The notes under the pieces are model-generated. The model was not told the origin of the DNA, made no database searches, and was given only the letters and a program-made list of their open reading frames with translations. This document shows positions 2,259-58,010 of a stretch of DNA of 64,000 nt, one piece after another. Every line of letters starts with the position of its first letter. Position 1 is the stretch's first letter. The position numbers and the translations under genes are program-made. The DNA is from a bacterium (GTDB lineage Bacteria > 4484-113): assembly GCA_021163765.1 (NCBI GenBank), contig JAGGTK010000099.1:16089-80088 (forward strand), given 5' to 3'.

Positions 2259-2305
2259 AACATCCTATTGTGTTAGAATTGCCGTGCGTTTCTAAAGGGG
2301 CGACA

Positions 2306-37182: not shown

Positions 37183-37188
37183 TCCCGT

Positions 37189-42756: not shown

Positions 42757-42792
42757 TTGTGAACAAAGACACCGGCCAGCCGTCATAATTAT

Positions 42793-43419: not shown

Positions 43420-44018
43420 ATTGCGCCGAAGTGAGAACCTTGTTATCTGCGTTGGCGGACGGCGAGATTGCCGATGACCGCTTGCGCGAGAAAGTGCAGT
43501 CGCATATGGATAACTGTGAGGCGTGTCGCCAGGAATATGCTTTGCAGCTGGACATAAAGTCTAAGCTGTCGGAACTTGAACCTGAAGAAGCCTCGGTTTT
43601 TCTGGCAACGCGGGTAACGGCTGAGATCAAGCAGCTTCGCCGAAGGCGCTCGGCCTGGAGATGGAGCTACGCCTACGCCGGAGCGGCGGCTGTGATTGCC
43701 CTGGTGGTTATGTTAGGCGGGGGTCTGCTTGTCCACCCGTCGGCGCAGGGCGTTTATAAGAGCTTGCCCGATGTCGCGCCGGCTACTGTAGCATTGCCGC
43801 GCTCATCAAATGGGGATGGTTACGGCAGCTTCACGGAGCTCGTGGTAGGGCGGCATGAAGAGGCGCGCGAATTGCTGAAGGTGCGGGAGGAATGGGCGCC
43901 GGAATTCGAGCAGATCGTTCAGCGTCTTGGTGGTGAAGAGGACGATGAGTCGCTGTATAAGGAGCTGCCCAAGGAGAACACAGAAGACGAGGAGGAGCTT
44001 GCAGCAGAGGAAGAGTAG
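43416..44018 (+). CDS. anti-sigma factor (zf-HC2 type), single-pass membrane
   Basis: HMDNCEACRQEY (an Hx3Cx2C motif), a central TM helix and an acidic tail. ATGA overlap with the sigma gene. Confidence 0.7.
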   Translation: MNCAEVRTLLSALADGEIADDRLREKVQSHMDNCEACRQEYALQLDIKSKLSELEPEEASVFLATRVTAEIKQLRRRRSAWRWSYAYAGAAAVIALVVMLGGGLLVHPSAQGVYKSLPDVAPATVALPRSSNGDGYGSFTELVVGRHEEARELLKVREEWAPEFEQIVQRLGGEEDDESLYKELPKENTEDEEELAAEEE

Positions 44019-44045
44019 GCCAGAAGGCGCATACTGGTAGAATCC

Positions 44046-45179
44046 TTGAGAGTCATGAAGGAAAACTGGCTGAAACTGCTTCCAGCAGCGCTGTTCACAC
44101 TGCTTGTGTTCGCACAGCCTGCGGCTGCGGTTGCCGATGATGCAACCGAGACGGCCAACAGCCTGTTGCGTACGTTTCTGGAGACCAGCTTCAAGGCTGA
44201 CGTAGTCTTCACGGTTGTCGGGAAGGAGAGCCAGGGCCTTAGCGGTCGTCTTTACAGGCAGCCGCCCAACCATTTCAGGTTGGAGTATTACGAGGGCGAG
44301 GAGCTCGTGGGCTACTACTTGGAGGATGGGAGGACCAGCGCGCGCGTGTTCCCGCGCGAGAGAAAGGCAGTACTCATGATGCGACAGAGACTCTCTCCCA
44401 TCTTTGCTTTGATCGCCGGCTGCCTGGAACGTGCGGCAAAGGAGAACGAACTGGCTCTCACGGAAGAGTATCGGGAGGGGCGAGAGTCGTACGTTTTCAG
44501 CGGTTTTGCAGGAGCAGGAGCTTTCTCTGCTGTGTTTGACGCCGAAGATAAGCTGCTTAGAGTGTTCAAGGCGGACGGGCAGAAGGGGGACCTGGGATTC
44601 AATATGGTATTGAGTAATGTGGAAGCCGTAGCACCGGGAGGGTTTGCAGCGGGGTTCTTCTCGGCGCCGCCCGATTTTCAGGTTTTCGGTCCCGCAGCGC
44701 GGGTAGCCGAAGGCGAGCGTAAGCGGTTAAGGACATTCCAGAGGCGGTTGCCCCAGCAACAGCATCATCCTAAAGCGCTGGAGGAGTCCCTCAATGCAGA
44801 AGAAAGCAGCAATGAGGATTTCCTTCCGGCGCTGCCCACCCAGCTTCCCAAGGGCTTCGTTATAGAATCGGTTACGCCGCTGTTCTTTTCGGGGCGTCTG
44901 CTTTATCACATTGAACTGGTTAACGTGGCGGATGTGCAACTGGTCTCGGTCTTTGAGACCCGGCATGAGGAGTTCCGTAAGGAATTTCAGAGAACATGGC
45001 GCAAAGATGGGAAGCGCTTTCTTGACCTTCCTCTAGGGGATAGCGGTATCTACGTGATTCTCATCTCGGAAGACATAGCGGAAGACGCGCTCCGGGCGAT
45101 CTATGACTCCATGGAATTCCAGCCGGACCTGGCGGTTCAGCTTATAGATAAGGCGCTTGCTAGCATACTGTCTGAATGA
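44046..45179 (+). CDS. secreted protein, possibly LolA/RseB-like fold
   Basis: A signal peptide (LLPAALFTLLVFAQPAAA) and a position directly after the sigma/anti-sigma pair. The fold assignment is a guess from context. Confidence 0.4.
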   Translation: MRVMKENWLKLLPAALFTLLVFAQPAAAVADDATETANSLLRTFLETSFKADVVFTVVGKESQGLSGRLYRQPPNHFRLEYYEGEELVGYYLEDGRTSARVFPRERKAVLMMRQRLSPIFALIAGCLERAAKENELALTEEYREGRESYVFSGFAGAGAFSAVFDAEDKLLRVFKADGQKGDLGFNMVLSNVEAVAPGGFAAGFFSAPPDFQVFGPAARVAEGERKRLRTFQRRLPQQQHHPKALEESLNAEESSNEDFLPALPTQLPKGFVIESVTPLFFSGRLLYHIELVNVADVQLVSVFETRHEEFRKEFQRTWRKDGKRFLDLPLGDSGIYVILISEDIAEDALRAIYDSMEFQPDLAVQLIDKALASILSE

Positions 45180-45217
45180 GCACCGCGTCAGCACGTCCTG
45201 AGCTATAATTCTTTAAC

Positions 45218-46348
45218 GTGGAGCACGAACGAATCGCGCATTTCGAGCTGTTGGAACTCATCGGGCGGGGCTCGATGGGCAAGGTGTACCGTGCCCGGGA
45301 TGTGCGCAACGAAGAAATCGTTGCCCTGAAAGCCTTCTATCCAGACACAAGCCTATCCGATCAGCAGCGCGACGAACTGCTCGCTCGCTTCCAGAAAGAG
45401 GCAAACATACTAACGACGATCGAGGATACAAACGTCGTTGGAATTCGCGAGGTAGGCACCCACGAGGGCCAGGAATACATCGCGATGGAGTTTCTCGATG
45501 GCCCGAACCTGAAAGAACTGCTCGCGATGGGCGTATCGTTTACGATTGAGGATATAGTCGACGTAGGAGTCCAGGTTCTCGCGGGGCTTGAGGCGTGCCA
45601 TAGAGCGGGCATTGTTCACCGGGACATTAAGCCCGCTAACATCGTGAAGCTGCCTTCAGGGACGGTCAAACTTGCAGACTTTGGAATAGCCCGCATCCTG
45701 ACCGACGCCACCATCAGCCGCACCGGAACAGTTGTAGGCACGCCGAACTACATGTCCCCTGAGCAGGTAAGCGGGGGCGAGGTAACACCACGCTCAGACC
45801 TGTTCTCTTTGGGCGTAGTGCTCTACGAGCTTACGACGAAACACAAGCCCTTTGACGGTGAGAGCATTACGGCAATTATGTACAACGTGGTGAATCTCAC
45901 GCCGCCAGCGGCATCGCACTATACGGAGGAAGTACCTGAAGCTATGGACCAGGTGCTGGCGCGGGCTATGCACAAGCGGCCGGAGCAGCGTTACCAGGAT
46001 GCGCATAGCTTTCAGAAAGACCTGCTGGCAGTGGAAGCAAAAGTGCCGGTTGCGGAGAGCACAATGGCATCTGCTGCCAGGCAAGACCGGGACGCAGCTG
46101 CGCCGGTTCAGGGGATGGGCGATACCTGTTACTGCGTTGACTGCGGGACTCCAAACAATCCCAAGAACCTCATCTGTGTGAAGTGCCACCGCCCGCTTCT
46201 GAAGCGCGAGATGGCCATGCGCTTTGCGGACAGGGTTTTTCGCGTTAGCCCGGAACTGCGGCTGGATAGAACACTAACGGCTGTGCTGAACTTCATCCTT
46301 GCACTGCTGGTTGTGTTGTTGATCTACTTCTTCTTCAGAAGCGGATAG
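45218..46348 (+). CDS. Ser/Thr protein kinase with C-terminal zinc ribbon and TM anchor
   Basis: GRGSMGKVY, VALK, HRDIKPANI, DFGIAR and GTPNYMSPE. A later CVDCG...CVKCH is followed by a terminal hydrophobic helix. Confidence 0.85.
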   Translation: MEHERIAHFELLELIGRGSMGKVYRARDVRNEEIVALKAFYPDTSLSDQQRDELLARFQKEANILTTIEDTNVVGIREVGTHEGQEYIAMEFLDGPNLKELLAMGVSFTIEDIVDVGVQVLAGLEACHRAGIVHRDIKPANIVKLPSGTVKLADFGIARILTDATISRTGTVVGTPNYMSPEQVSGGEVTPRSDLFSLGVVLYELTTKHKPFDGESITAIMYNVVNLTPPAASHYTEEVPEAMDQVLARAMHKRPEQRYQDAHSFQKDLLAVEAKVPVAESTMASAARQDRDAAAPVQGMGDTCYCVDCGTPNNPKNLICVKCHRPLLKREMAMRFADRVFRVSPELRLDRTLTAVLNFILALLVVLLIYFFFRSG

Positions 46349-46384
46349 CCCGTATCGGTTGCCGTTAGCTGGCTCCCGTAAGCC

Positions 46385-47326
46385 TTATGCCTCTTGGGAA
46401 ACTTCGGCTGCGCGCGGACGGTACTTGAGAAACGACACCATATTGCCTCGCTCATTGAAGTTAACCTCATCCATCAGGCTTTTGATGAGGAAAAGCCCGC
46501 GCCCGTAGGTTTTCATAAAGGATTCCGGATCGATATGCTCGCTTATAGCGGAGTGGTCGAAGCCGGATCCTTCGTCAAGCACCCGGACTTCAGCGCGGAG
46601 CGGGTCGATCGAGACGAAGACGGTAATGGTTTTTTTCTTGTTCTCCTCTTCAGCCATCTGCTCGAGCAGGTATTTGCGGTAAACGCTATGGCCAAGGATC
46701 AGGGAGCTTTCCTTCACGCGCTTGTCTACCTGAAGGTTGCCGTGCTCAAAGGCGTTCAGCAGGGCCTCGTAAAGCGCCACCTTGATGTCGTTGAGCTGGC
46801 CTCCCTCCATTTCCCAGCAGTCACGAACGGAAGCGAAGACGTAATTGATGACCTTTGAAAGGTACACATAGTTGGTGGGGATGCGTATGGTGAAGCTCTG
46901 GCTGCGGACAAACGGGACGATTTCCTGTACGTCCGCCGCTTCCTGATGCACGGTGAAGATATTTTCGATGAGCGATATGACCTCATTTATGTCAAACGGT
47001 TTCTTAATGAAGCTCTTCGCACCAAGCCGGATGGCCGAAATCGCATCTTCCATCGTGCCGTAGCCCGTCAGGATAATCACAGGCACATTCAGGCGGCGTT
47101 TGCGTATCTCTCCAAGCAACTCGATTCCGCTCATTTCGGGCATCTTGATGTCGGTGACAATAAGGTCAGGAATGGCTTTCTCGACGTGTTTGAGGGCTTC
47201 GACCCCGTTTCCCGCTTCAACAACCTCATATCCGAGTGCTTTCTGAATCTTATTGGAGATGACGTCGCGGATTATCTCTTCGTCGTCCACAACCAGTATG
47301 CGTTTGGGCAGGAGAGCGAAATCCAT
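46385..47326 (-). CDS. response-regulator receiver fused to an HATPase (RsbW/SpoIIAB-like) domain
   Basis: ILVVDDEEIIRD...TDIKMPEMSG...K (REC). The C-terminal half reads ..ALLNAFEHGN...RVLDEGSGFD...GRGLFLIKSLMDEV (GHKL ATPase). Confidence 0.75.
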   Translation of the reverse strand: MDFALLPKRILVVDDEEIIRDVISNKIQKALGYEVVEAGNGVEALKHVEKAIPDLIVTDIKMPEMSGIELLGEIRKRRLNVPVIILTGYGTMEDAISAIRLGAKSFIKKPFDINEVISLIENIFTVHQEAADVQEIVPFVRSQSFTIRIPTNYVYLSKVINYVFASVRDCWEMEGGQLNDIKVALYEALLNAFEHGNLQVDKRVKESSLILGHSVYRKYLLEQMAEEENKKKTITVFVSIDPLRAEVRVLDEGSGFDHSAISEHIDPESFMKTYGRGLFLIKSLMDEVNFNERGNMVSFLKYRPRAAEVSQEA

Positions 47327-47525
47327 AGCGGGTCAATGTTAACGATGAGACGGGTAACAGTCAATGTGCTGCCCTGATTGAACTTATCGGCAGCTGGAAC
47401 GAAATTGCCATTATTTAGCGAAAGTAGCCAAATAGGTGTCCCCTTTTCGTAAATACCTGCTATAATGTAAATAGGCGGCGTGATCCGTCGGGTGGGATGG
47501 TTGGGTACAGAATGACCGTATAGCG

Positions 47526-48899
47526 ATGATGCTTATGCAACAATTTCGAAGAGTCTCCGATACTGGCCAGCCGAAAGGCTACATTGACACGGCGGCTGGG
47601 CGCGAAGAGCGGCAATCGCGGAACGCGAAGTTGAGCTTATACGCCCGCTACTATAGCGGAGATGTCTACCGGCATCCAGCAGAATGGGCGAGTGGAAACG
47701 GCTATGCGACAAGCGTTTCGCCGCCTGACATCTACATCAACTATGCGCGTTTCCTTATTGACCGGCTGGCTTCGTTTAGCTTCGACCGTGCGGTCGGCGT
47801 GAGAATGCGGCCCAACGGTGAAGTGGTGAGTGAGGACTCAGAGACTGTGTCGGAACGCTTCCTCGCAGATTTCATTCGTACTTCCCGATTTCTGTCAAGG
47901 CTGACTCCCGTAGCCAGGGAGGCTCTGTTGTTCGGGGATGTCCTGCTGAAATTGCAGCACAATGCGGGCGGCGTCTTTCCACTAACGTTTGCGGTAATCC
48001 CCGCTGAGGAATTCGATTTTGAGCACAGCCCCCGCGACCTGGCGGAAGTCCGCTTCATCCGGGAGGAGTTTACATACTACGATGACGCGGGTGCGCGCGC
48101 GATCCATCGAGAGGAGCTGCATTCCGATCGCGTGGTTTACTACCGCGATGAAGCCCTGTCAGAACCAGCGGGGAAGCGGCTATGGCCTGCGCTGCTGTCG
48201 CACGTGCTTGCAGAGCGAACCCCGTTGCTCGCAGTCGAGCGGGAAGTGGCGCATCCGTTCGGGCGGATTCCGGCGGTACACGTCAGGAACAGGCCGCAAC
48301 TCGGCGCTAAGTTTGGCGTAAGCGAGCTGGCGGACCTTACGCCGCTGCTTGACGACGTGAACTGGAAGATGGCCCAGCGTTCGCGCAACATCTCTCGCAC
48401 GATGAACGCCATCCTCAAGAACATAAACGGGCGGCTCGTTAACGATCAGCTTGACGACACACAGATAGTCAGCGTCATCGGCGACAACGCGGAGCTGGAG
48501 TACCTAATCAACGACAGCGATCTGTCGCCGGTACAGGCGCACATCAGCGAACTTAAGCAGGCGCTCACTGACCTGACGGGTGTCGTGATGCTCAGTCCGG
48601 ATAAGCTGACCAGCGTTGGCGCAATGTCGGGGTTCGCGCTGTCGATACTCTATGAGCCGCTGCTGAACGCTGCTCGGGCGAAAAGGCAGGAGATAGGGCG
48701 CTCGGTGGAGGACTTCCTGGAACTCGTGCTTGACGCCGGCGTCAAGCTGGGGCTCGTCCCGGAGCAAGAAGTGCAAGCCGCCAGGCCATGCCTGACGTAT
48801 GCACCCGATCTACAGTTCACGGAGCAGGAGAAGCTTACGCGCCTGCGCAGAGAACTGCTGGCGGCAGAGTCTGGCCGGACTGAGCTCGACGAACACTAG
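47526..48899 (+). CDS. phage portal protein (SPP1 gp6-like)
   Basis: 457 aa, first gene of the block. The size and pattern (..YINYARFLIDRL..., GVSELADLTPLLDDVNWKMAQRSRNI, ..AMSGFALSILYEPL..) resemble the SPP1-type portal family as I remember it. Confidence 0.7.
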   Translation: MMLMQQFRRVSDTGQPKGYIDTAAGREERQSRNAKLSLYARYYSGDVYRHPAEWASGNGYATSVSPPDIYINYARFLIDRLASFSFDRAVGVRMRPNGEVVSEDSETVSERFLADFIRTSRFLSRLTPVAREALLFGDVLLKLQHNAGGVFPLTFAVIPAEEFDFEHSPRDLAEVRFIREEFTYYDDAGARAIHREELHSDRVVYYRDEALSEPAGKRLWPALLSHVLAERTPLLAVEREVAHPFGRIPAVHVRNRPQLGAKFGVSELADLTPLLDDVNWKMAQRSRNISRTMNAILKNINGRLVNDQLDDTQIVSVIGDNAELEYLINDSDLSPVQAHISELKQALTDLTGVVMLSPDKLTSVGAMSGFALSILYEPLLNAARAKRQEIGRSVEDFLELVLDAGVKLGLVPEQEVQAARPCLTYAPDLQFTEQEKLTRLRRELLAAESGRTELDEH

Positions 48900-48908
48900 G
48901 AGGCCGAG

Positions 48909-49193
48909 ATGGAGGAAACAACGAAGATCAACGAGAAACCGGAAGAAAACAAAACAGATACAGGCGCACACCAGGAGCCGCCAGGTGAAGCTCCCACCGA
49001 AGAGACTGAACCGGAGCGGGATTCCCCGACGGACCCTACGATCGCGGAACTCGTTCGGAGTGAAGTCGAGAAGCGCGTGGCCGAAGCATTTCCCGCGCGC
49101 CGGGAGAGCCCAAGGGTGGAGGCCGGTCGGACGCACCTCTCCGCTAACGACTATCTGCGGCTTGGCTATGGTGTGCGCTCACCCCACACTTAG
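48909..49193 (+). CDS. acidic/proline-rich small protein in the scaffold position
   Basis: 94 aa with a GGAGG Shine-Dalgarno, lying between portal and capsid. The function is positional only. Confidence 0.3.
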   Translation: MEETTKINEKPEENKTDTGAHQEPPGEAPTEETEPERDSPTDPTIAELVRSEVEKRVAEAFPARRESPRVEAGRTHLSANDYLRLGYGVRSPHT

Positions 49194-49207
49194 GAGGGTA
49201 GGGAAAA

Positions 49208-50119
49208 ATGGCATTGACACTGGCTGAAGCAGCCAAACTGGAAACCGACTACTTGCGCCGTGGCGTCATTGAAACGTTCGGCGAGTACTCTCCAGTCCTG
49301 GAAGACCTTCCGTTTATGGATGTACAGGGAAACTCGTACCGCTATAACCTGGAAGGCACATTGCCCGACGTGGAGTTCCGCGCCGTGAACTCGGGTTACA
49401 CTGAGAGCACGGGCACGGTCACCGATGCCAGCGAATCGCTGGTCATTTTCGGTGGCGTCGTGGACGTGGACCGGTACCTGCAGCAGGTGCGAGGCTCGAT
49501 AAACGACCTGCGCGCACTTCAGACTCGCCTGAAGGTCAAGTCGCTTGCGCTGGCCTTCACCCGGGAGTTTTTCGAGGGTGACAGCTCTGTCGACCCGAAC
49601 TCGTTTGACGGCCTTCAGAAGCGGCTCTCCGGCGCTCAGGTTATCACTGCTGACAGCGGCGGCGGCAACGGTGATGTGCTCTCGCTTGAGTACGTTGACC
49701 AGCTAATCGATTCAGTCTGGGGAGGCCCGGACGTGATCTTCCTTAGCAAGGCTAACCGGCGCAAGCTGGTGCAGCTTGGCCGCGAAACCGAGCTTATCGC
49801 TGTCGAGATGGACGGTGCGAACAAGGTTAACACGTACTACGACGGCATCCCCGTTAAGGTTGTGGACAAGGACAACAACGACGAGGACATCCTGGGCTTC
49901 GACGAGACGGTGGGCACGGAGACGGAGTGCTCGAGCATCTATGCTGTGCGGTTCGGCGCTGACGAGTTTCTCTGCGGCTTGAGCAACGGCGGTATCCAGG
50001 TTGAGGACCTGGGGCTCATCGCGAATCCGCCCGTCTATCGCACTCTGATCGAGTGGTATGTCGGGCTCGCCGTCTTCAACCCGAAGTCCGCCGCGCGGCT
50101 GCGGGGCATTCACCAGTAG
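49208..50119 (+). CDS. putative major capsid protein
   Basis: 303 aa with a strong Shine-Dalgarno (GGAGGG). Positioned after portal and scaffold. The N-terminal MALTLAEAAKL..DYLRRGVIE...LPFMDVQGNSYRYN pattern recalls capsid proteins of tailed phages without a delta domain. Confidence 0.55.
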   Translation: MALTLAEAAKLETDYLRRGVIETFGEYSPVLEDLPFMDVQGNSYRYNLEGTLPDVEFRAVNSGYTESTGTVTDASESLVIFGGVVDVDRYLQQVRGSINDLRALQTRLKVKSLALAFTREFFEGDSSVDPNSFDGLQKRLSGAQVITADSGGGNGDVLSLEYVDQLIDSVWGGPDVIFLSKANRRKLVQLGRETELIAVEMDGANKVNTYYDGIPVKVVDKDNNDEDILGFDETVGTETECSSIYAVRFGADEFLCGLSNGGIQVEDLGLIANPPVYRTLIEWYVGLAVFNPKSAARLRGIHQ

Positions 50120-50126
50120 TGAGGCG

Positions 50127-50414
50127 ATGAGCATGGAGCGTACCCGCGGCTACGTGCGCCTGGCATGCATGGTTGTCGGACATTCCAAGGCGGAAAGCCA
50201 GCAGATGTTCACGGAAATCATGGATGCTATGGACCTGGACGGAAGCGTTTTTGAAGTGACGCTGGGAAACCGTCGCTACACCGGCCCGCAAATGGGGCAC
50301 TGGTTCGAGAACGGCGTGGCCCAGGTCGGCGCTGTAGCCGCGGCGCGCTTTGCTGCCGAGGGTTACGAAGTGCGCAAACTCGCCCCATCGTACTGTGAGC
50401 AGGTAGAACCATGA
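50127..50414 (+). CDS. phage-like small protein (head-tail connector position)
   Basis: 95 aa. Position and size only. Confidence 0.35.
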   Translation: MSMERTRGYVRLACMVVGHSKAESQQMFTEIMDAMDLDGSVFEVTLGNRRYTGPQMGHWFENGVAQVGAVAAARFAAEGYEVRKLAPSYCEQVEP

Positions 50415-50995
50415 ACACCAACCTTGATTACATCCGGGTATTTTGCGGTGAGCGCGACGAGGCGGATCCGCTATTCTCGGACGAGGAACTGAAAGCGCTA
50501 CTGTCGATTCACGCTCACCACGAGGTCACACAGCGCCTTGCGCGGCACCTCGCTGAGAACAGCGTGGATTATCAGGAGCTGGACGCAGGTCTTCTCCGGA
50601 TACGCCTGAGGAGATTGGCTAATGTCGAAGGCGCGTATTACGCGGGTGTCGGGAACTGGCTTGACGACGCTTATGCGCTGGCGATTGACGGCGTGGGCTA
50701 TACACCTTCGCCGGACGACATTGTGGATACGTACGGCGGTCGCGTGGTCTTCGCGACGCCACCGGCGGAAGACGCAACGGTGATAGTAGAGACGTATCTG
50801 ATAGACCTGCGGTCGGTACTCGTTGAACTCCTCAGCTTGGTCCGGGCTGCCCGGTCCCGCCTGGCGCTGCGCACGAACCTCTCAGGAATGAGCGTAGACC
50901 TGACGAAGGTCTGCGAACGTCTGCAAGCGGAGATTGACCAACTGTCCAGCGGCTACAGGATGCCTGTGGCGCCAATGGAAGACTATCCACACTGA
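50411..50995 (+). CDS. phage-like protein (head-tail adaptor/connector position)
   Basis: 194 aa with an ATGA overlap upstream. Position only. Confidence 0.35.
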   Translation: MNTNLDYIRVFCGERDEADPLFSDEELKALLSIHAHHEVTQRLARHLAENSVDYQELDAGLLRIRLRRLANVEGAYYAGVGNWLDDAYALAIDGVGYTPSPDDIVDTYGGRVVFATPPAEDATVIVETYLIDLRSVLVELLSLVRAARSRLALRTNLSGMSVDLTKVCERLQAEIDQLSSGYRMPVAPMEDYPH

Positions 50996-50996
50996 G

Positions 50997-51392
50997 ATGG
51001 GCAAGCAAGAATTATCAAGGGTATTCAGTGAGCTGTTGCGGCATCTTGGCGGGAGCCGTTCGCCGGTCTTCCTGCGGACGCGCCAGCTCTCCGGCGGCCT
51101 GCCGGCAGCGGGTGAGCCACCCAGCGGGCCTTATGAGGATACGGAACTTGTGCCTATGCCGCTTGTGCTCGATGCAGGCAACAACAGAGGGGAGGGGCTT
51201 CGTGAGGTTATCGCGAACCACAGGGAGAGAGTCGGCCTTAAGAAGCTCGTCCTTCACGGCAGCAACCCGGTGGAGATTGGCAGCCGCCTTTTCTTTGAAG
51301 GCGCCGAATGGGAGGTCGTGCGGATGCAGTCCCCGCTGGTCTTTGGCCTGGAGCCGCTCAAACTCGTGCTGGCCAGGAGGCTGATCACGTGA
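50997..51392 (+). CDS. phage-like protein (head closure / neck position)
   Basis: 131 aa. The ATG lies 1 nt after the upstream stop. Position only. Confidence 0.35.
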   Translation: MGKQELSRVFSELLRHLGGSRSPVFLRTRQLSGGLPAAGEPPSGPYEDTELVPMPLVLDAGNNRGEGLREVIANHRERVGLKKLVLHGSNPVEIGSRLFFEGAEWEVVRMQSPLVFGLEPLKLVLARRLIT

Positions 51393-51826
51393 TCCTCTAC
51401 ACCATATACAGTGTTAACCTCTGGCTCGCTGACAAGCTCGCCGGTTATGGCGAGATAGCGTTCACAGAGGAGCAGGACGCAGCTTTTCCGTGCTTCCGCG
51501 TCGTATGGGGAGAGCAGCGGGAAGCGAGCGTGCGGCCCAAAGGAGTGCTTAGCGGCGCGCGCTTCACAATCTACTGCCTGGCATCAGGCGATATGAGCCA
51601 TCTTGCGCGTCGGATGGCAACGGTGGCGCTAACAACGCTGCGTTCAGCCGGCCCGGGCTTCACGATTCCCCGATACTTTTATCCGCGCGAGCCTTCTGAT
51701 GAGCCGATTGACTATATCGCTTTGCGCGACATCACGAGCCGGGAGTTGCACCTGCAAGACCAACCCGAACTGGCGGTGCACGTCGTGCAGGCCACCGCGC
51801 TCGCATTGAATCTGCCTGTGAGTTGA
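51389..51826 (+). CDS. phage-like protein (tail completion position)
   Basis: The GTG at 51389 has AGGAGG 8 nt upstream and a GTGA overlap with the upstream stop. 145 aa. Confidence 0.35.
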   Translation: MILYTIYSVNLWLADKLAGYGEIAFTEEQDAAFPCFRVVWGEQREASVRPKGVLSGARFTIYCLASGDMSHLARRMATVALTTLRSAGPGFTIPRYFYPREPSDEPIDYIALRDITSRELHLQDQPELAVHVVQATALALNLPVS

Positions 51827-51835
51827 GGAGGAGCT

Positions 51836-52591
51836 ATGTCAACTAACTACTATGCGCTCACACTCGGCGACTCTGAGATCTACCTGAATGACCAGCATAT
51901 GGGTCTCGCAGTCGGGCTTACGCTGCACAAGGTGGTCGAGCGCCTGGTCGTGGAGCAGCCCGTGGCCGGGGAGCTGGCGGCACGACACCTTGTGCCCCTT
52001 CGTCGTGCTCTCACGCTGGAGGTGCGCTTCAAAGAGCTGAGCCCGGCCGCGGTATCCTTCTTTGCGGGCGGGACCAATACTCGCTTCGACGCCGCAAACC
52101 TTGGGGTGACCGATTACATTCGGCTTTATGAGCAGCGGCCGTCGCAAATCCGCTTTGTCCCCCACAGCGCGCCAATTGTGAAAAGCGCGGACGGTTCCAT
52201 CCTCTACACGGACGAGGTTGACTACAGCTCGGACTGGGGGAACAGGCAGTTCTCCCTCGTCTCAAGCGGCAGCATTGAGCCGGGTCAGTTGCTAAAGGTT
52301 CTGTATGCGACCGACTATCCTGAAGGGCGCGAGGTGCCGCTGGCGCACTCAAGCGCTGCCACTGCGAAGCTGGAAGCTGTCCATCGCTATCCCGACGGCC
52401 AGAGCTTTATGGTCCTTCTTCTAAGGCGGGTAGAGCTGGATGCCTCAGGCGTACTGGCCACGGGGACAGAAGACTTGGTTGACGTGCCACTAATCGGCAG
52501 ATGCCTGGCGGATGACACACACCCCGACTCGCCCTTCGGATATGTCCGGTTCTACGGCGAGATGATGTCAAGGATGGAGAACCGCCCATGA
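51836..52591 (+). CDS. putative major tail (tube) protein
   Basis: 251 aa with a GAGGAGG Shine-Dalgarno. It immediately precedes two small ORFs and a tape-measure-like ORF, the canonical siphovirus order. Confidence 0.35.
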   Translation: MSTNYYALTLGDSEIYLNDQHMGLAVGLTLHKVVERLVVEQPVAGELAARHLVPLRRALTLEVRFKELSPAAVSFFAGGTNTRFDAANLGVTDYIRLYEQRPSQIRFVPHSAPIVKSADGSILYTDEVDYSSDWGNRQFSLVSSGSIEPGQLLKVLYATDYPEGREVPLAHSSAATAKLEAVHRYPDGQSFMVLLLRRVELDASGVLATGTEDLVDVPLIGRCLADDTHPDSPFGYVRFYGEMMSRMENRP

Positions 52592-53007
52592 GCATACTAG
52601 TAGGCGATGTCCTAAGGCGGATCAGGCAGCGGTTATCTCATCTCCCGCTGGCGGGTCCCGGCGCGCGGATTGCCCTGCGCTCCGGGCGCATCGTTCGCGT
52701 GCGGCCGCTGAACCTTCACCGCGCCCTGTTACTGCTTGACCTTGCCGGCGGGATGATAGAACGCGTCGGATGGGATCACCTCAGGCGACTGCCGCTGGTT
52801 CCCGCGCTGTTCAAGGTTATCAGGGGGAGTCCTGAGGAACTGGCTGAAGCGCTTTCGTTGCTGACAGGTGAATCGCCGGACGTGGTGCTCTCCGAGTTTG
52901 CGCCGGCGGATGCAGTGCAAGTCTTGCTCAAGGCCTGGGAGCAGGAGTTCTTGCGGCTGCCTGCACAGAAACTCAAGCCCTGGATTGACGGGGTGAGCGA
53001 TGTCTGA
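52588..53007 (+). CDS. tail assembly chaperone-position protein
   Basis: 139 aa with an ATGA overlap. Position only. Confidence 0.3.
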   Translation: MSILVGDVLRRIRQRLSHLPLAGPGARIALRSGRIVRVRPLNLHRALLLLDLAGGMIERVGWDHLRRLPLVPALFKVIRGSPEELAEALSLLTGESPDVVLSEFAPADAVQVLLKAWEQEFLRLPAQKLKPWIDGVSDV

Positions 53008-53245
53008 ACTGGCGCTTGCCGGCTGGGGTCTGCTGCTGAAAGACGAGTTCCCGAGGCTTGTCGCAAAGCTGGCGCTCGCCCTGGGGATGACTCCGGCGGA
53101 AGTTATGCGCCGTCTTACGCCCACCGATGCTGCGATGCTGCTCGACGAACTCAACCAAAGCGCGAAAGATAGCGAGGCTGAAGAGCGGCTTGGCGAATCG
53201 CCGAATCGCGACGCAGCGCTGTTCTCGCGGATGTTTGGTGACTGA
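53000..53245 (+). CDS. second tail assembly chaperone-position protein
   Basis: 81 aa. Overlaps the previous ORF by 8 nt in another frame. Confidence 0.3.
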   Translation: MSELALAGWGLLLKDEFPRLVAKLALALGMTPAEVMRRLTPTDAAMLLDELNQSAKDSEAEERLGESPNRDAALFSRMFGD

Positions 53246-53246
53246 T

Positions 53247-53807
53247 ATGTCGTTGCTGTTCAAAGATAACACGCAAGAGGAGCTGGATGATCTGGCGCTG
53301 CGCGTCGAAGAACTCTCACAGCGCCTGGGCGAGTTGTGGGCTCGGATCACTGGAAGCTCTGGGGAAGCCTCACGCTCAGGTGGTGCGCGCGGATCCGGCA
53401 TTGACTCCCTGTTCGGCATAAGCCTTGAATCGCTGGCGCGCAGAACGGGCTACCAGATTGCGGGCGGCGAGAGCCTGGACGTCGTGGTGCGCACAGCGGT
53501 GCGGCAGGTGGAGCGGGCTGCGGGCCGCCGCCTGGAAAGGCTGCTCGCCGGCAAACTGGGTTATGGCTTGCTGGCCAGCCTCGCAGGGGGCGGAGCGCTG
53601 GCACTGCTGGACGCAGGTTTTGCTGCCATCACCCGGCTCTTCAAAAAGCGCAGGCTCGATCTGCCCAGGTTGGAGGAGCGTCCGTACGGAGGCTTCCCCC
53701 GTTTCGCCGAGCGCACGCGTCTCATTCCGCCCGGTGCAGAGCGCGATGACCGGCTTGAGCGGGAGCTTGTGGGAATGCTGGCGCGTTCGATCGCGGAGGA
53801 GAAGTAG
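53247..53807 (+). CDS. very short tape-measure-like protein
   Basis: 186 aa. It has a helical, charged N-terminus, a Gly/Ala-rich hydrophobic centre (LLASLAGGGALALLDAGFAAI) and lies after the chaperone-position ORFs. Confidence 0.35.
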   Translation: MSLLFKDNTQEELDDLALRVEELSQRLGELWARITGSSGEASRSGGARGSGIDSLFGISLESLARRTGYQIAGGESLDVVVRTAVRQVERAAGRRLERLLAGKLGYGLLASLAGGGALALLDAGFAAITRLFKKRRLDLPRLEERPYGGFPRFAERTRLIPPGAERDDRLERELVGMLARSIAEEK

Positions 53808-54260
53808 ATGCTGAGACTATGGTTCGGTCCATCAGTTGACGACACGATAGATGTGTCTCCGCTGGCGCTGGAGACGGAGCATGGCGTGGGTTTCGCAGTC
53901 GCCACCGATCTCGCGGGAAATGTGCACAAGGTGAATTTCGCAAGCGGGCGCTATCCGGTAATGGCGCTCATTACTCTTCCCCCGGCGCAGCTTGGGGTGA
54001 CCGGCGTCAATGTGGGAACGCTCCGGGAACGGCTTTTAGACTGCCTCGAGTCCGGCAGTAACATAACGGCGTTCGTTGAGAGCACAGGGCTGGCCTACAG
54101 CCTGGTTCTCACAGAAGCCTCGCCCGCGCTTCTTGCGGACGAGGACCTGAGTGAGATGGCAGCGCGGGAGACCATCAGGATTGCCGCGCTGGTTCTCGAC
54201 GACGGCGTTTTCAGTGATTACGCGCAGCTCGGCAGCGTTATCTGGCGGGGGAGGAACTGA
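53808..54260 (+). CDS. distal-tail-position protein
   Basis: 150 aa. Abuts the upstream stop. Position only. Confidence 0.3.
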   Translation: MLRLWFGPSVDDTIDVSPLALETEHGVGFAVATDLAGNVHKVNFASGRYPVMALITLPPAQLGVTGVNVGTLRERLLDCLESGSNITAFVESTGLAYSLVLTEASPALLADEDLSEMAARETIRIAALVLDDGVFSDYAQLGSVIWRGRN

Positions 54261-56173
54261 TGGGTTTCACTGAGACTGCCCGCCAGCACCTTCAGCAGCT
54301 TGACAAGCGGGTCTGCTACACGCTCCTTGCGCGCAATTCGCATCCTGAAGGAAGCGATTGGGTTGAGCTGAAACTGGCCAGCGCCGGCTTCGTGCTGGTC
54401 AGCGACCGGACCGAGTTTGCGGCGTCACTTGAGTTCACGATCCCCGCTAGCGACAGCGCGTGCTTCGCCGAGCTTGACCCCGGAAACGTCCTGGCGCTGT
54501 TTTCAGAAGTCAAGCTCGTATGTGAGGTGGCCGGGGAGAGCGAGATTCTCTTTCGCGGGTTTGTAACAGAAATCCGTGAGGAAGGCGCACATATCCGCGT
54601 GTTTGCGCGCGACCACGCACTAAAGCTCTCGCGTACCATCTGTGCTGTGGAGATAGAAGGCGACAGGACAGACGAGATTGAGAACGCACCGCTTATCGCT
54701 CTTGCTGGTGAGTTCGACGACCACACGTATGGATTTGACCCCAACGTCACGCCTTTGGGTTTCTCCAGTGAAGGGAAAAGGCGTGCCTGGAAGCCGGGAG
54801 ACATCAGAATATATGAAAACGGCGAAGAAGCTTCTCCTGACTTCTACCGCGTCTATCCGATGAGCGGCGTGGTGAAATTCCTTGACCCGCTACCCGCGTC
54901 GCCCACGGTAAGCGGCGTTCGCTGTTATATCGAGGCTACGAGTGACGCGGCGAAGGCTGTGGCTGAAGCGCTTCAGCATCCTGAAGATGATGGCGGTATA
55001 GGCGCAGCATCCGGCGAGCTGGATTTGCCAGACATCGGGATAGGCCTGCACCTGCTTGAGTGGAAGCGCGGGGATGGGCATACCTCGGACTGCGTTTCCA
55101 GGATCGCCGACAGGCTGCCACGCAACTACTTTTTCCACTATGACAGTGAAGCCGGCAAGTACACGCACGGGTTGCTGGAGCAGAAGGAGACGCCAGCGCG
55201 GCCACTCATCAACGTTTCGTCGTTTGCGCGTATCCGCACAAGAGAACGCATCTACACGCGGGTCGTTGTGCATGGCGCACGAACAAATCCGCCTAACCTC
55301 GCTCTCAACGCGACGGTGGCAGACCTGCAGGCTGGAGTCGGCGAGAAATACGAATGGAACGGCAACGAGAAGCACTTCGGCGAAGGCTCGGTTGCACTGA
55401 CCTGCGATGGCGACAGCAACCGGGGATTCGGGCGCCACGACGCGCCATACTCGTACGAGTTCTACGACTTTGCCAAGTATGACCTGGGGCTGGACGGGAA
55501 CGGGCAGCCACCACGGGTCAGCGCCGTAGGCATCGTCGCTGCCAATTCCAAGAACGTTAACAGCCAGAAGTCTGCCAACAGCAAGTTCAGCTACGGCTAT
55601 GAGATTCTGGGAAGCACCGACGATATAAGTTACGAGCGGGTCTCGCCTGATGCGCACTTGCTGCTCCCGCCGCTGGCAGAAGCGCTGCTGACTAATCTGA
55701 CAATGCGGAGGATGCGCTACGTTAAGGTTCGCGTGAAGCCGGCCAAGGACGGCGTGAGCAACGAAAGCGATCCTGGCCTGGCGCTAAACGAGATACGCAT
55801 CTTCGGTGAAGGCGATTTCGTTGTGGAAGCGGCTGTGCAGGCGACAGACCCCGGTGAGCCTTACTACTATCCGGAGCTGCTCGAGAAGACGGACGGCGCG
55901 GGGCCGCAAGTGCTCACGGTTGAAGTTGGTGATGAGCTGCCGGAAAGCGAGGCATTGAAGCTCGCAAGGGACCTGCTGGAAGAGTCGCTTTACGCTTACT
56001 TTGGCTACGAAGCCGTGTGTATCGCCGATCCCACAGTTCGTGTTGGCGACACGGTGTCCTGCACCCATCCTGTTACGGGCAACGCTCAGGCGTTCCTCGT
56101 GGAGCGCGTGGAACTTGCGCCGGCGCGCACGCGCGTTTTCGGAACAGACTACAACGCGGAGGTTCTGCGATGA
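54260..56173 (+). CDS. large tail tip/baseplate-type protein with a discoidin (F5/8 type C, galactose-binding-like) domain
   Basis: 637 aa, the largest ORF of the block. The segment ..MRRMRYVKVRVKPAKDGVSNESDPGLALNEIRIFGEG has the typical ending of discoidin-type carbohydrate-binding domains. Confidence 0.5.
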   Translation: MGFTETARQHLQQLDKRVCYTLLARNSHPEGSDWVELKLASAGFVLVSDRTEFAASLEFTIPASDSACFAELDPGNVLALFSEVKLVCEVAGESEILFRGFVTEIREEGAHIRVFARDHALKLSRTICAVEIEGDRTDEIENAPLIALAGEFDDHTYGFDPNVTPLGFSSEGKRRAWKPGDIRIYENGEEASPDFYRVYPMSGVVKFLDPLPASPTVSGVRCYIEATSDAAKAVAEALQHPEDDGGIGAASGELDLPDIGIGLHLLEWKRGDGHTSDCVSRIADRLPRNYFFHYDSEAGKYTHGLLEQKETPARPLINVSSFARIRTRERIYTRVVVHGARTNPPNLALNATVADLQAGVGEKYEWNGNEKHFGEGSVALTCDGDSNRGFGRHDAPYSYEFYDFAKYDLGLDGNGQPPRVSAVGIVAANSKNVNSQKSANSKFSYGYEILGSTDDISYERVSPDAHLLLPPLAEALLTNLTMRRMRYVKVRVKPAKDGVSNESDPGLALNEIRIFGEGDFVVEAAVQATDPGEPYYYPELLEKTDGAGPQVLTVEVGDELPESEALKLARDLLEESLYAYFGYEAVCIADPTVRVGDTVSCTHPVTGNAQAFLVERVELAPARTRVFGTDYNAEVLR

Positions 56174-56967
56174 CCAGGAATGCAAGCCTTCCGCAGGCCC
56201 TGAAGTCACTGGTGGACGAGCGCCTTGAAGCGCAGAAGAAGCGCATCACCGGCATGGGCAGCGAGCTGAAACCGCGCGCGCCCTACTTCGGGGGGCCGGG
56301 CGGCGGCGACGACTTCGAACTCGGGGGAGTGAGCAGCCTTTCGGTACCCGGCGAAGATGGCATAGAAGGGGATGTTGAAATTGCCGGGGGAGAGGGGCTT
56401 GTGGCCAGCCAGTCCACCGACACTATTACGCTGGCTGCTCCGCGCATCAGGCACTGTCCAAATCCGCGAACTCCGCTTGCCCTCGCAACTGCGGCTTCGT
56501 TGATAGGGAGTCGCATCTATTTGCATCCGACAGAGCTGCCGGGGAGTATGCAGGTTGCGGCGTATTTCCTTCAGATAGAACGCGCCGGCGACCCGGACGA
56601 TCAGGTGTCGCTCATCGAAGTTGCGATATACAAGCGCAACGTAAGTGACGACGGCTTCACGCGAGAGGCTCACTTCGGAGCGCCCTGTTTCAATGATTTC
56701 AGCCAGGTTGCCACGGGAAACGTCTACAGGTCCGCTCTGGGTTCGAGTGTCCTCATTCCGATGGGGCAGCATTTCCTGGCGTTTCTATACAAGTACTCGG
56801 GTGTGGACGGTTACAGGTTTGGAGTGTGTGAAGCCCCCGGCGCCCACTATCCGGGCTCAGGCATCTACCAGGACGGAAGCGCCACAGAGCTTCCCGCGTC
56901 GATACCCGACTCGGATCTTTGCGCAGGGTGCACCGCTATTGTCTGGACTGAACTTGCGGCAGACTAG
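56170..56967 (+). CDS. tail fibre/receptor-binding-position protein
   Basis: 265 aa with an ATGA overlap. A Gly/Asp-rich N-terminal region is followed by a globular C-terminal part. Confidence 0.35.
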   Translation: MTRNASLPQALKSLVDERLEAQKKRITGMGSELKPRAPYFGGPGGGDDFELGGVSSLSVPGEDGIEGDVEIAGGEGLVASQSTDTITLAAPRIRHCPNPRTPLALATAASLIGSRIYLHPTELPGSMQVAAYFLQIERAGDPDDQVSLIEVAIYKRNVSDDGFTREAHFGAPCFNDFSQVATGNVYRSALGSSVLIPMGQHFLAFLYKYSGVDGYRFGVCEAPGAHYPGSGIYQDGSATELPASIPDSDLCAGCTAIVWTELAAD

Positions 56968-56990
56968 CCGCCATTAACAAGGAGGAGAGT

Positions 56991-57233
56991 GTGGATCTCA
57001 AGAGAATCGGCAGGAAAATACTCGTGTTTGTACTCAATCTGCTTTTCGCCATTTACGAGGTGGAATCTGAACTCGTTATGGCCATAGTCGCCGAAGTGCG
57101 CGCCGAGGGTCTGGCCGGCGATGAAGCCCGCCGCGAAGTGTTCAGGCGCTTCCGTGAGCGCTACAAGGACGAGCTGCGGGACAGCGTGCTCAATCTTTTA
57201 ATAGAAGCAGCGGTTGTCGTGGGCAAGCCCTAG
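56991..57233 (+). CDS. small membrane protein (holin-position)
   Basis: 80 aa with a GTG start after AAGGAGGAG. One hydrophobic helix (ILVFVLNLLFAIY). Confidence 0.3.
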   Translation: MDLKRIGRKILVFVLNLLFAIYEVESELVMAIVAEVRAEGLAGDEARREVFRRFRERYKDELRDSVLNLLIEAAVVVGKP

Positions 57234-57235
57234 CG

Positions 57236-57547
57236 ATGGAGCAGTGGCCAATCACCATCGGGAACCTCGGCATAGGCGGAGGCTTGGCGTTCTTCTTCGC
57301 GTGGTATCTGGTGCGGGTAGTTATACCCTCGCTGACCAGGGAAAACGGTAAGCAGCGGCAGGCGTTCCTTGCAGAACTAAAGGAGCAAAGGCGCGAGTTC
57401 ATCGCAGCGCTGCACGAATTGAAGGAGAGCGGTGAGCAGTCAGCTAAATGCGTCTCGCGGGAGCTTTCAGGCCTGGGAACGGCGATACAACGCAACAGTG
57501 AGCTGATTGTGCAGTTTAATCGCGGGCGCGAGGTCGGCGGAAGGTGA
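57236..57547 (+). CDS. holin-like single-pass membrane protein
   Basis: 103 aa. A TM helix (IGNLGIGGGLAFFFAWYLVRVVI) and a charged coiled tail. It directly precedes the endolysin. Confidence 0.35.
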   Translation: MEQWPITIGNLGIGGGLAFFFAWYLVRVVIPSLTRENGKQRQAFLAELKEQRREFIAALHELKESGEQSAKCVSRELSGLGTAIQRNSELIVQFNRGREVGGR

Positions 57548-57551
57548 GTGG

Positions 57552-58010
57552 ATGCGAATTATCGACATCCGTGAGGACCTCGCACGCAGCCGTTCAAGGA
57601 AGTACGCAACAAGGCCGCTGCGCAAAATCGAGAAGCTCGTGGTGCATCATTCGGGCACGCGCGGTGGCACACCTAAGTCTTTTGCCTGGTATCATGTCCA
57701 CGCGCGTGGGTGGCCGGGCATCGGCTACCACTACGTGATTTCGCCCGACGGCGTGGTCTTCAAGACTAATGCGCTCACGACAGTAAGCTACCACGCGAGG
57801 GGAGCGAACCTCGGCGGTGTGGGCATCTGTCTGGTGGGCGACTTCAACCGGTCTGAGCCAACTGATGCCCAGATGGAGGCGCTCACCGAGCTGCTCGGCT
57901 TATTGCTCCACCACCATCCAGGGGCTGAAATCGTGCTGCACCGCGAAGTGAAGGGCTCACGCACAAGCTGTCCGGGGCTGAAGTTTCCGGCCGAGGGGCT
58001 TCCGCGCTAG
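57552..58010 (+). CDS. N-acetylmuramoyl-L-alanine amidase (Amidase_2 / T7 lysozyme / PGRP family) endolysin
   Basis: KLVVHHSGT...GWPGIGYHYVISPDG...SYHARGAN..GVGICLVGDF...LHREV...SCPG is collinear with T7 lysozyme, including the Zn ligand positions. Confidence 0.85.
   Translation: MRIIDIREDLARSRSRKYATRPLRKIEKLVVHHSGTRGGTPKSFAWYHVHARGWPGIGYHYVISPDGVVFKTNALTTVSYHARGANLGGVGICLVGDFNRSEPTDAQMEALTELLGLLLHHHPGAEIVLHREVKGSRTSCPGLKFPAEGLPR

Follow-up and report, generated by a model that had tools for sequence, protein, structure and literature searches.

Gene content of the phage-derived block

The window analyzed here, a stretch of 64,000 nucleotides of contig JAGGTK010000099.1 (GCA_021163765.1) from a bacterium of the GTDB lineage 4484-113, carries on its forward strand a phage-derived block of 17 tightly packed, co-directional genes spanning 10.5 kb. 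The original prediction, made from the letters of this stretch alone, had described the block as 17 co-directional open reading frames (ORFs) running from a portal to an amidase, and had proposed a maintained particle-producing locus akin to the gene transfer agents (GTAs). The number, direction and order of the genes are borne out by gene models and homology searches, with five starts and one frame of the mechanical ORF list revised from orthologue gene calls and start codons (marked as revised below; protein lengths are in amino acids, aa).

47526-58010, + strand: the entire phage-derived block
47526-48899, + strand: g01, portal protein of the SPP1 gp6 type, 457 aa (PF05133, E=3e-16; phrog_64, E=2e-27)
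48909-49193, + strand: g02, acidic protein (pI 4.9) at the scaffold position, 94 aa, a scaffold candidate by position
49208-50119, + strand: g03, major capsid protein of the epsilon15 gp7/BPP-1 type, 303 aa (phrog_212, E=3e-81; NCBIfam MCP_gp7_epsi_15, 238 bits against a cut-off of 75)
50133-50414, + strand: g04 (revised), connector-sized protein, 93 aa (orthologue identity 31-87%; dN/dS 0.15)
50411-50995, + strand: g05, connector-position protein, 194 aa
50997-51392, + strand: g06 (revised), connector-position protein, 131 aa (orthologue identity 36-84%; dN/dS 0.13-0.16)
51389-51826, + strand: g07 (revised), probable tail-completion protein with a GTG start, 145 aa (dN/dS 0.07-0.08)
51836-52591, + strand: g08, major tail (tube) protein, 251 aa (phrog_807, 8e-5, a weak match)
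52588-53007, + strand: g09, candidate tail assembly chaperone, 139 aa (phrog_1442, E=2e-4, a weak match)
53000-53245, + strand: g10, second chaperone-position protein, 81 aa, so labeled from its position
53247-53807, + strand: g11 (revised), tape-measure-position protein, 186 aa, between the chaperone-position genes and g12
53808-54260, + strand: g12, distal-tail-position protein, 150 aa, a candidate for this role by position
54260-56173, + strand: g13, baseplate hub or tail-tip protein with an inserted carbohydrate-binding-like domain, 637 aa (from a structural model and Foldseek)
56170-56967, + strand: g14 (revised), fiber or receptor-binding-position protein, 265 aa (identity 38-88% in the main clade)
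56991-57233, + strand: g15, small holin-like membrane protein, 80 aa (identity 50-91%)
57236-57547, + strand: g16, small holin-like membrane protein, 103 aa (identity 41-92%)
57552-58010, + strand: g17 (revised), N-acetylmuramoyl-L-alanine amidase, endolysin, 152 aa (PF01510, E=3e-21; phrog_822, E=5e-27)

With the revised models 99.5% of the block is coding, and its junctions comprise seven overlaps of 1-8 nt, eight gaps of 0-14 nt and one larger gap of 23 nt, which agrees with the overlapping or near-gapless packing that had been described. A strong Shine-Dalgarno sequence is found in the 23-nt gap, ahead of the lysis genes. Both borders are likewise as predicted: 199 bp separate the portal gene from a divergent response-regulator gene, and the amidase gene at the 3' end overlaps a convergent PHP gene by 4 nt. 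The remaining content of the window is of the housekeeping kind, including IspG, aconitase-family proteins, an isopropylmalate/isocitrate dehydrogenase, an aminotransferase, a CCA-adding enzyme and ABC transporters.

Judging from the homology searches, the assignments of the portal, the capsid and the Amidase_2 domain appear solid, those of the tube and one chaperone weak but concordant, and that of g07 indirect. The predicted identities of the portal and the capsid are thus backed by hidden Markov models (HMMs), namely PF05133 and phrog_64 for the former, and phrog_212 and MCP_gp7_epsi_15 for the latter. The portal has 21 homologue clusters among 5.8 billion proteins, and its profile reaches at best E=0.006 against the PDB. 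The capsid protein has thousands of homologues. Among solved structures PDB 3j4u (E=1e-6), which we take to be the capsid of Bordetella phage BPP-1, comes closest to it in sequence. In what follows, homologous loci and related phages are denoted by L numbers, with those at the chromosomal site of the window forming the main clade, and L016, L022 and L024 among the more distant blocks. Across the main clade the capsid is 81-94% identical, and no other gene of the region is as well conserved. The capsid family as such is unusually slow-evolving, as g03 is 52-57% identical to capsids of phages of Bacillales (Firmicutes). The portals of the same window and phage pairs are only about 24% identical and the tails are unrelated, and this contrast with the capsid suggests a mosaicism of modules at the origin of the block.

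No family match was found for g02 in Pfam or PHROGs, and its similarity to the 212-aa scaffold of the prophage L027 is not significant; in distant orthologues residues 44-94 alone align, so that the C-terminal 50 or so residues form the conserved part. There is no family match for g04, and for g05 neither a PHROG match nor anything significant in a PDB profile search, with orthologues of the latter present in all block-type loci including L016, L022 and L024. The length of g06 is 131 aa in every orthologue call. The probable role of g07 derives from the protein at the same position in L022, which matches the tail-completion family PF11367 (Tail_completion_gp17, SPP1 gp17) with 25.4 bits against a threshold of 24.5; BLASTP gives no link between this position-equivalent protein and g07 of the window.

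In the tail module, the tube protein g08 also matches the NCBIfam model tail_tube_6XGR (8e-6, under its cut-off), and its profile aligns over the full length with the major tail protein of JBD30 in the PDB (E=0.02); tblastn finds no match to it in 50,697 phage genomes. The sequence of g10 is poorly conserved, and a gene of 74-88 aa occupies its position in all loci but L010 and L011. A classical -1 frameshift between g09 and g10 is ruled out, given that g10 starts from an ATG of its own and is read in the +1 frame with respect to g09. L010 and L011, two species-level metagenome-assembled genomes (MAGs), are devoid of both g09 and g10 with the rest of the block genes intact, and their tape-measure-position gene follows about 3-10 nt after the tube gene (L010:14254-15560, L011:14276-15576); either the chaperones are dispensable for so short a tape measure or they have moved elsewhere. 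The g11 protein has a hydrophobic Gly-rich segment at residues 108-126 (Kyte-Doolittle hydropathy, KD, 1.61), and a hydrophobic segment is carried by many tape measures. Its size is 159-208 aa across block-type loci, as against 849-1320 aa for the tape measures of related true phages. An AlphaFold2 (AF2) model of g11 from its single sequence was uninformative (mostly helical, with a mean confidence, pLDDT, of 38.9). The distal-tail-position protein g12 has a constant length of 150 aa throughout the main clade, while distant lineages have versions of 141-148 aa, and a PDB profile search with it gave nothing significant.

A more informative model was obtained for g13, which was built on 21 homologues with a pLDDT of 82.4. 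Its Foldseek matches in the PDB (E 4e-10 to 1e-6) are hub and central-spike proteins of contractile injection systems, T5 pb3, Mu gp44 and VgrG, i.e. the fold also described as the gp27 type, and its matches in BFVD are siphovirus tail proteins. A further match, at 1.5e-6, is to the sialidase 1eut (large 68 kDa form, galactose complex), of which the matched part is presumably the galactose-binding domain. On this model, g13 is best described as a tail-tip hub with a sugar-binding-like insertion. The discoidin domain originally assigned to this 637-aa tail protein is rendered plausible by the 1eut fold match, though Pfam makes no such call. The protein is exactly 637 aa long in all main-clade loci and has 120 representatives in 1.84 billion proteins, with no match in the 50,697 phage genomes.

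The g14 protein has no family match, and in L022 its position is taken by an unrelated protein of 466 aa. The two small membrane proteins noted originally each have one hydrophobic segment above KD 1.6 (KD19 1.68 in g15 and 1.73 in g16), and the predicted amidase at the end of the block is confirmed by its Amidase_2 match. The lysis module appears to be exchangeable, with Amidase_2 in the main clade and a weakly recognizable CHAP-like protein in L022 (19252-19791); in L028 (7913-8778) a host GGDEF gene directly follows the fiber-position gene, with zero lysis genes. On the whole, the operon covers all the structural classes that a small siphovirus-like particle requires and adds lysis genes of its own. 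As is expected of a GTA, it is a chromosomal cluster of tailed-phage-like head and tail genes, in which portal, capsid, tail-completion, tube and hub proteins are recognized by HMM or fold.

Conservation of the block and the functions absent from it

Orthologous loci were collected from the contigs of portal homologues and from a scan of one genome per species. They comprise eight full-length loci (L001, L002, L006, L007, L008, L010, L011 and L013) and the partial loci L004, L005, L009, L012 and L014. In all eight full-length divergent loci the block lies between the response-regulator gene, which encodes a receiver and an HATPase_c_2 domain, and the PHP gene, and the partial loci agree. The shared order is that of DUF3187, extracytoplasmic function (ECF) sigma factor, anti-sigma factor, a protein of no known family and Ser/Thr kinase, followed by the divergent receiver/HATPase_c_2 gene, the block and the convergent PHP gene. 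Conserved synteny at the same chromosomal position, which the original prediction had named as a sign of domestication, is therefore present in these eight loci, and the intact frames that it saw in the window are found in all of them as well. Portal identity to the window is 51-92% across the main-clade loci, the divergent full-length ones differing from it by 41-49% in this protein, and the capsid is 303 aa long in them to the residue. The contigs are 80-274 kb long and stem from independent assemblies. Their hosts are named in NCBI mostly as 'Planctomycetales bacterium', and otherwise as 'Candidatus Riflebacteria bacterium RBG_13_59_9', 'Chloroflexi bacterium' or simply 'bacterium'. L012 belongs to 'Planctomycetales bacterium 4484_113', whose name matches that of the GTDB candidate phylum 4484-113; the lineage that carries the block thus includes the name-giving MAG of this phylum.

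A decayed copy of the block is found in GCA_037441675.1, where it is split over two contig ends (L003:10001-14317 and L026:1-6867). It has frameshifts in the portal gene, g13 and g14, while about 10 flanking genes are intact; the coverage of this assembly is only 6.9x, a depth at which frameshifts are uncertain. Its capsid gene is cut off at residue 174, where it meets genes in reversed orientation, among them one for a VanY-like Peptidase_M15_4; this break could be due to insertion of another element. Taken at face value, this copy represents decay in one lineage and provides a natural control for how the block looks without selection.

The history of the block relative to its surroundings was assessed with Kimura distances from concatenated block proteins (13 proteins; 3081 columns) and flank proteins (6 proteins; 2004 columns). 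The two sets of distances are strongly correlated (Pearson r=0.955, Mantel p=0.0004) with a slope of 0.90, and therefore the block evolves slightly slower than its neighbors. Neighbor-joining (NJ) trees of block and flanks have identical unrooted topologies, and per-gene identities rank the loci in the same way for block genes and flanking host genes. The 17 genes have thus been inherited vertically together with the neighboring host genes. Pairwise dN/dS values, which are Nei-Gojobori (NG86) approximations against the two closest relatives L008 and L004 at unsaturated dS (0.2-1.1), lie at 0.056-0.23 (against L008) and 0.03-0.34 (against L004) for the 17 block genes, with 0.09 for the portal. 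The values for the flanks are 0.02-0.27, with dS similar to that of the block. All 17 genes are under purifying selection, and the dN/dS below 1 that had been anticipated for a domesticated locus holds for every one of them. The combination of vertical inheritance and co-evolution with the host under purifying selection, as is characteristic of GTAs, is therefore seen here.

The base composition of the block likewise follows that of each host genome. Across hosts its GC content tracks that of the flanks from 0.49 to 0.65, and its GC at third codon positions (GC3) does so from 0.54 to 0.80. The block was originally judged to be as GC-rich as its flanks; it does resemble them, but the two are not merely equal, as the block stands at 0.600 against 0.571 for the rest of the window. 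It exceeds its flanks in GC in 10 of 10 loci as well as in the window, and GC at second codon positions (GC2) is higher in the block in eight of eight loci.

Beyond the main clade, an NJ tree of the best 119 capsid homologues recovers the 26 closest capsids as one clade that excludes the phage-type capsids. All five contexts sampled inside this clade show the same block architecture, the portal gene being directly preceded by host genes, and the blocks outside the main clade lack a terminase as well. Their contexts are as follows.

L016, upstream: seryl-tRNA synthetase, a restriction-modification pair and a radical SAM gene
L022/L023, upstream: ribH, tpiA and hicA
L024, upstream: FTR1, a SurA-like gene and HU
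L028: a locus that starts at the capsid gene and ends at the host GGDEF gene

The two contexts taken from just beyond this clade, L025 and L027, whose capsids are 55-57% identical, are ordinary siphophage or prophage genomes. These encode an HTH protein resembling the small terminase (TerS), a large terminase (TerL; Terminase_6C, 577-590 aa), Phage_min_cap2, a scaffold of 212-215 aa, a tube of 136-174 aa and a tape measure of 849-1320 aa, with L027 additionally having an SPP1-type Dit, a Tal of 1206 aa and an integrase, and a tube of the Phage_tail_2 type. Relative to its nearest phages, the block family has thus lost TerS, TerL and the minor head protein and has had its tape measure reduced to 159-208 aa. 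Its scaffold candidate, at 94-183 aa, is only partly shorter than the phage scaffolds of 212-215 aa.

The absence of terminase, integrase, repressor and replication proteins in and next to the block, as had been predicted, holds across the window and the orthologous loci. None of these families was detected with Pfam and PHROGs among the large ORFs of the window, which is also devoid of tRNA genes. No terminase or lysogeny module lies in the 47 kb upstream or the 6 kb downstream of the block, or in the 10-kb flanks of any block-type locus, and tblastn with TerL, TerS, minor-capsid and integrase sequences of the related phages gave nothing at E<=1 in the 478 kb of window and block-type loci. 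The att-like direct repeats that the original prediction had proposed to look for are not found either, the repeats between 46.3 and 59.4 kb being short chance ones inside genes, none of which brackets the block. A prohead protease is missing too, as stated originally, but this is uninformative because true phages with this capsid type also lack one. Hence, the genes for self-propagation (integrase or excisionase, replication and lysogeny control) are absent from the block, the window and the 10-kb flanks. A functional temperate prophage can be dismissed on this account, given that integrase, repressor or antirepressor, replication module, TerS/TerL and att sites were all not found in the window and loci searched; the true prophage relative L027 illustrates the genes to be expected of one. 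Close free-phage relatives are likewise missing: a portal-profile scan of IMG/VR returned only four short contigs at 24-25% identity, and in the 50,697 phage genomes the capsid alone has a good match (about 52%).

A putative domesticated particle and its alternatives

Taken together, these observations make it likely that the block is a domesticated, miniaturized phage-derived particle operon, i.e. a GTA-like 'viriform', which has become fixed in the chromosome of an uncultured bacterial lineage. The original suggestion of a maintained locus rather than a decaying prophage is well supported by the shared site, the intact frames, the dN/dS values and the lack of att repeats. The comparison with the RcGTA type has to be abandoned as one with the wrong family, since the capsid type differs and there is no terminase or protease; the nearest precedent in architecture is BhGTA/VSH-1.

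If the block encodes such a particle, a conserved extended -10 element ahead of the portal gene (see below) would drive its transcription, in a subpopulation of cells or under stress, and control would probably be exerted by the adjacent co-conserved cassette of receiver/RsbW-like kinase, Ser/Thr kinase and ECF sigma/anti-sigma factors. The head would be assembled on the portal from the epsilon15-gp7-type capsid with the help of a shortened scaffold, and would be joined through the connector proteins and the tube to a very short tail, the length of which would be set by the 186-aa tape measure. By the rule of about 0.15 nm of tail per tape-measure residue, a tail of about 28 nm is predicted; the short scaffold and tape measure only suggest that the particle is small. 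Attachment may be mediated by the sugar-binding-like domain of the hub and the g14 fiber, and release by the holin-like proteins and the amidase. Because the portal and the genes at head-completion positions are under purifying selection, something would appear to be packaged and retained. By analogy with BhGTA/VSH-1, it is probably a terminase from another part of the genome that fills the head with host DNA, and we hold with fair confidence that such an unlinked terminase would be the most likely packaging source.

BhGTA/VSH-1 of Brachyspira hyodysenteriae (Brachygtaviriformidae) is set beside the block by architecture alone, both being chromosomal head-tail-lysis clusters with no terminase inside; the only terL of the Brachyspira genome lies outside the 16.3-kb cluster (PMC9662315). 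Nearly all BhGTA genes are without sequence relatives among sequenced phages, and the agent has co-diversified with its hosts (PMC9662315), and phage relatives are few for the block as well, with only its capsid having good phage matches. The two differ in that the BhGTA cluster has a variable gene order among Brachyspira species, whereas the 10.5-kb block is strictly syntenic, and in that particles and gene transfer have been shown experimentally for BhGTA, whereas the block is known from its genes alone.

F-type tailocins, which are chromosomal, phage-derived and non-replicating, share with the block siphovirus-type tail genes and a lysis cassette, but have no portal, scaffold, capsid or head-completion genes. 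An F-type tailocin is ruled out by the presence of portal, scaffold-position, capsid and connector genes that are conserved and under purifying selection. The RcGTA cluster (Rhodogtaviriformidae) is under the control of host regulators, begins with TerS and TerL genes, and has a prohead protease and a capsid of the HK97-gp5 type, its lysis genes being elsewhere. Unlike it, the block has neither terminase nor protease, its capsid is of the epsilon15-gp7 type and comes with a distinct scaffold candidate, and lysis genes form part of the block; the TerL of RcGTA is g2 (PMC9662315). The likeness lies in compactness, vertical inheritance, a GC content elevated relative to the host and a tape measure that is very short and close in length to that of the block. 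In RcGTA it comprises about 216 aa, with a tail of 49 nm (PMC7296036), and RcGTA regions show elevated GC1 and GC2 (PMC7360931). Profiles of the tube, g05 and g12 gave no significant match to RcGTA chains in the PDB (best E=0.52).

With the Paenibacillus larvae phages Unity, Halcyone and Tripp and the prophages L025 and L027, the block shares a capsid 52-57% identical, a portal of the SPP1 type, the portal-scaffold-capsid order and the lack of a prohead protease. These siphophages differ from it in having a TerS-like HTH protein, TerL, Phage_min_cap2, a longer scaffold and tape measure and genomes of 50-56 kb, and their portals are only about 24% identical to that of the block. The domesticated particle systems described so far are RcGTA-like, BaGTA, BhGTA, Dd1, VTA, PBSX-like and, recently, FpGTA (PMC12946183). 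A literature search returned nothing relevant on GTAs in Planctomycetes and no earlier description of such a locus. We provisionally regard the block as an independently derived addition to this class.

Several points weigh against this interpretation. The 478 kb examined contain no terminase, and the packaging of DNA is hence an assumption, drawn by analogy. The block is known from genes alone, and only from MAGs of uncultured hosts. Position, size and composition are the sole basis for the labels given to g02 (scaffold), g11 (tape measure), g12 (distal tail) and g14 (fiber). The lack of chaperone-position genes in L010 and L011, together with the decayed copy, indicates that maintenance is not universal, and the high conservation of the capsid is weaker evidence than it looks because the capsid family is intrinsically slow-evolving. 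The putative promoter upstream of the portal gene is of the housekeeping rather than the ECF type, which leaves the link to the neighboring ECF sigma factor unsupported. Finally, the flanks tested are immediately adjacent genes, and joint transfer of cassette and block as an island would likewise produce congruence; this caveat is countered by the absence of mobility genes and by the way in which GC3 follows each genome.

Among the alternatives, the one that survives best, though we consider it rather unlikely, is a headed and tailed particle that is never filled by a terminase and that serves in killing or lysis-coupled adhesion, protein delivery or a structural role. It draws on the lack of a terminase in or near about 13 block-type loci in five chromosomal contexts, on the additional absence of two proteins that related phages have, a small terminase and a minor head protein resembling SPP1 gp7, and on the sugar-binding-like domain of the hub. 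The portal and connector or head-completion proteins of tailed phages serve in DNA entry and retention, and the purifying selection on the portal and the four genes at such positions speaks against a DNA-free particle. To our knowledge, moreover, every characterized headed phage-derived particle packages DNA. BhGTA shows that terL can be unlinked from its cluster, and the terminase search spanned 478 kb, not whole genomes. That genomes of the clade are without any terminase, so that headed, short-tailed particles would be empty or filled by a non-terminase mechanism and released by regulated self-lysis controlled by the neighboring kinase, response-regulator and ECF cassette, is likewise a doubtful proposition; if true, it would define a new functional class of domesticated phage particle, apart from GTAs and tailocins.

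A phage satellite or helper-dependent island, of the phage-inducible chromosomal island (PICI) or capsid-forming-PICI-like kind, might use the terminase of a helper, and this would fit capsid genes without a terminase and the differing chromosomal contexts of the block family in distant lineages. Such an origin is very improbable given that the window yielded neither an integrase nor a small terminase and no att repeats or genes for replication or a primase, that within the main clade the block keeps to one chromosomal site and diverges in step with its flanks, and that the portal-profile scan of IMG/VR revealed no close relative. Known satellites usually borrow tail and lysis functions, whereas the block encodes a complete tail and lysis module.

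About as improbable is the view that the block is half of a functional prophage, separated from its packaging and lysogeny modules by rearrangement or an assembly break. Only 6 kb of the window lie downstream of the block and MAG assemblies are fragmented, which would leave room for such a break, but the same boundaries with host genes on both sides recur on the long contigs of independent assemblies, the portal gene has its own conserved promoter-like element and a divergent host gene upstream, and the tape measure and scaffold are miniaturized relative to functional relatives. Least probable of all is a cryptic remnant in neutral decay that is still intact by chance: terminase, integrase and lysogeny modules are missing as they would be in a remnant, and GCA_037441675.1 does show decay, but this reading is already contradicted by 17 intact frames in at least eight genomes with 40-50% protein difference, by a dN/dS of 0.03-0.34 for every gene, by lengths of 303, 150 and 637 aa fixed to the residue and by GC fully ameliorated across hosts.

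If the block is indeed a domesticated particle operon, it would add a further independent origin, in a deep uncultured lineage, to the few independently domesticated phage-particle systems known, almost all of which were found via cultured organisms. The evidence for domestication is unusually clean, comprising fixed site, co-divergence, purifying selection, host-tracking composition and a decayed copy as a control. Miniaturization of the RcGTA-like kind, with a tape measure of about 190 aa, would have arisen in a different phage ancestry, and a terminase-less cluster, so far known from BhGTA, would recur. Should a terminase be encoded elsewhere in the genome, the block would offer a second test case for the unlinking of packaging from particle genes. 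The comparisons made here also amount to a recipe for finding such loci in MAGs.

Putative promoter, signaling cassette and probable acquired islets

Upstream of the block lie a putative promoter, a divergent gene and a gene cassette that may bear on its regulation.

47458-47471, + strand: TGCTATAATGTAAA, a promoter-like sequence of the sigma-70 type with an extended -10, lying about 55 nt ahead of the portal start codon
46385-47326, - strand: divergent neighbor, receiver and RsbW-like HATPase_c_2 kinase domain (PF00072 and PF13581), candidate regulator
41449-46348, + strand: upstream cassette of DUF3187 outer-membrane-like protein, ECF sigma factor, zf-HC2 anti-sigma factor, secreted 377-aa protein of no known family, and Ser/Thr kinase (Pfam/NCBIfam)

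An exact match to TGCTATAATGTAAA occurs once in the window. The core TGCTATAAT is present in nine of the 11 aligned intergenic regions between response-regulator and portal genes, with the full 14-mer in eight of these nine; L006 departs after TATAAT, and L010 and L011 carry TATACT. In the distant lineages TTGACAAAT-N6-TATAAT (or TATGAT) lies upstream of the portal gene (L016, about 9750-9800; L017, about 430-460; L022, about 8380-8400), with TTGACA just 9 nt from the -10 box. From its sequence conservation, this promoter- or operator-like element seems to belong to the block itself and to travel with it. An ECF-type promoter upstream of the portal gene is rejected, the conserved element being of the extended -10 housekeeping type. 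An Rfam search (E<=0.1) over 41-61 kb gave one sub-threshold match inside the DUF3187 gene and no leader RNA.

The receiver/HATPase_c_2 gene adjoins the portal gene in every main-clade locus, and the five-gene cassette is found upstream in the same order in L001, L002, L003, L004, L006, L007, L008, L010, L011 and L013. It is a feature of the main clade only, and is not found beside the distant blocks L016, L022 and L024. A regulatory link of the signaling cassette (41449-47326, six genes with the receiver) to the block is plausible from this co-conservation. The Ser/Thr kinase was also considered as a defense system and rejected as such, the PADLOC hits PD-T4-6 and mad6 being generic kinase-domain matches.

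The window further contains the three AT-richer islets that were noted originally, at 2243-3397, 17214-18933 and 36900-38295, and their lower GC content is confirmed (0.48-0.54). These look like acquired islets of the defense or toxin type that are unrelated to the block; they hold an HSDR_N-like type I restriction gene, an HTH_3 and Peptidase_M78 (ImmA/IrrE-like) gene with a small partner, and a Fic/DOC gene.

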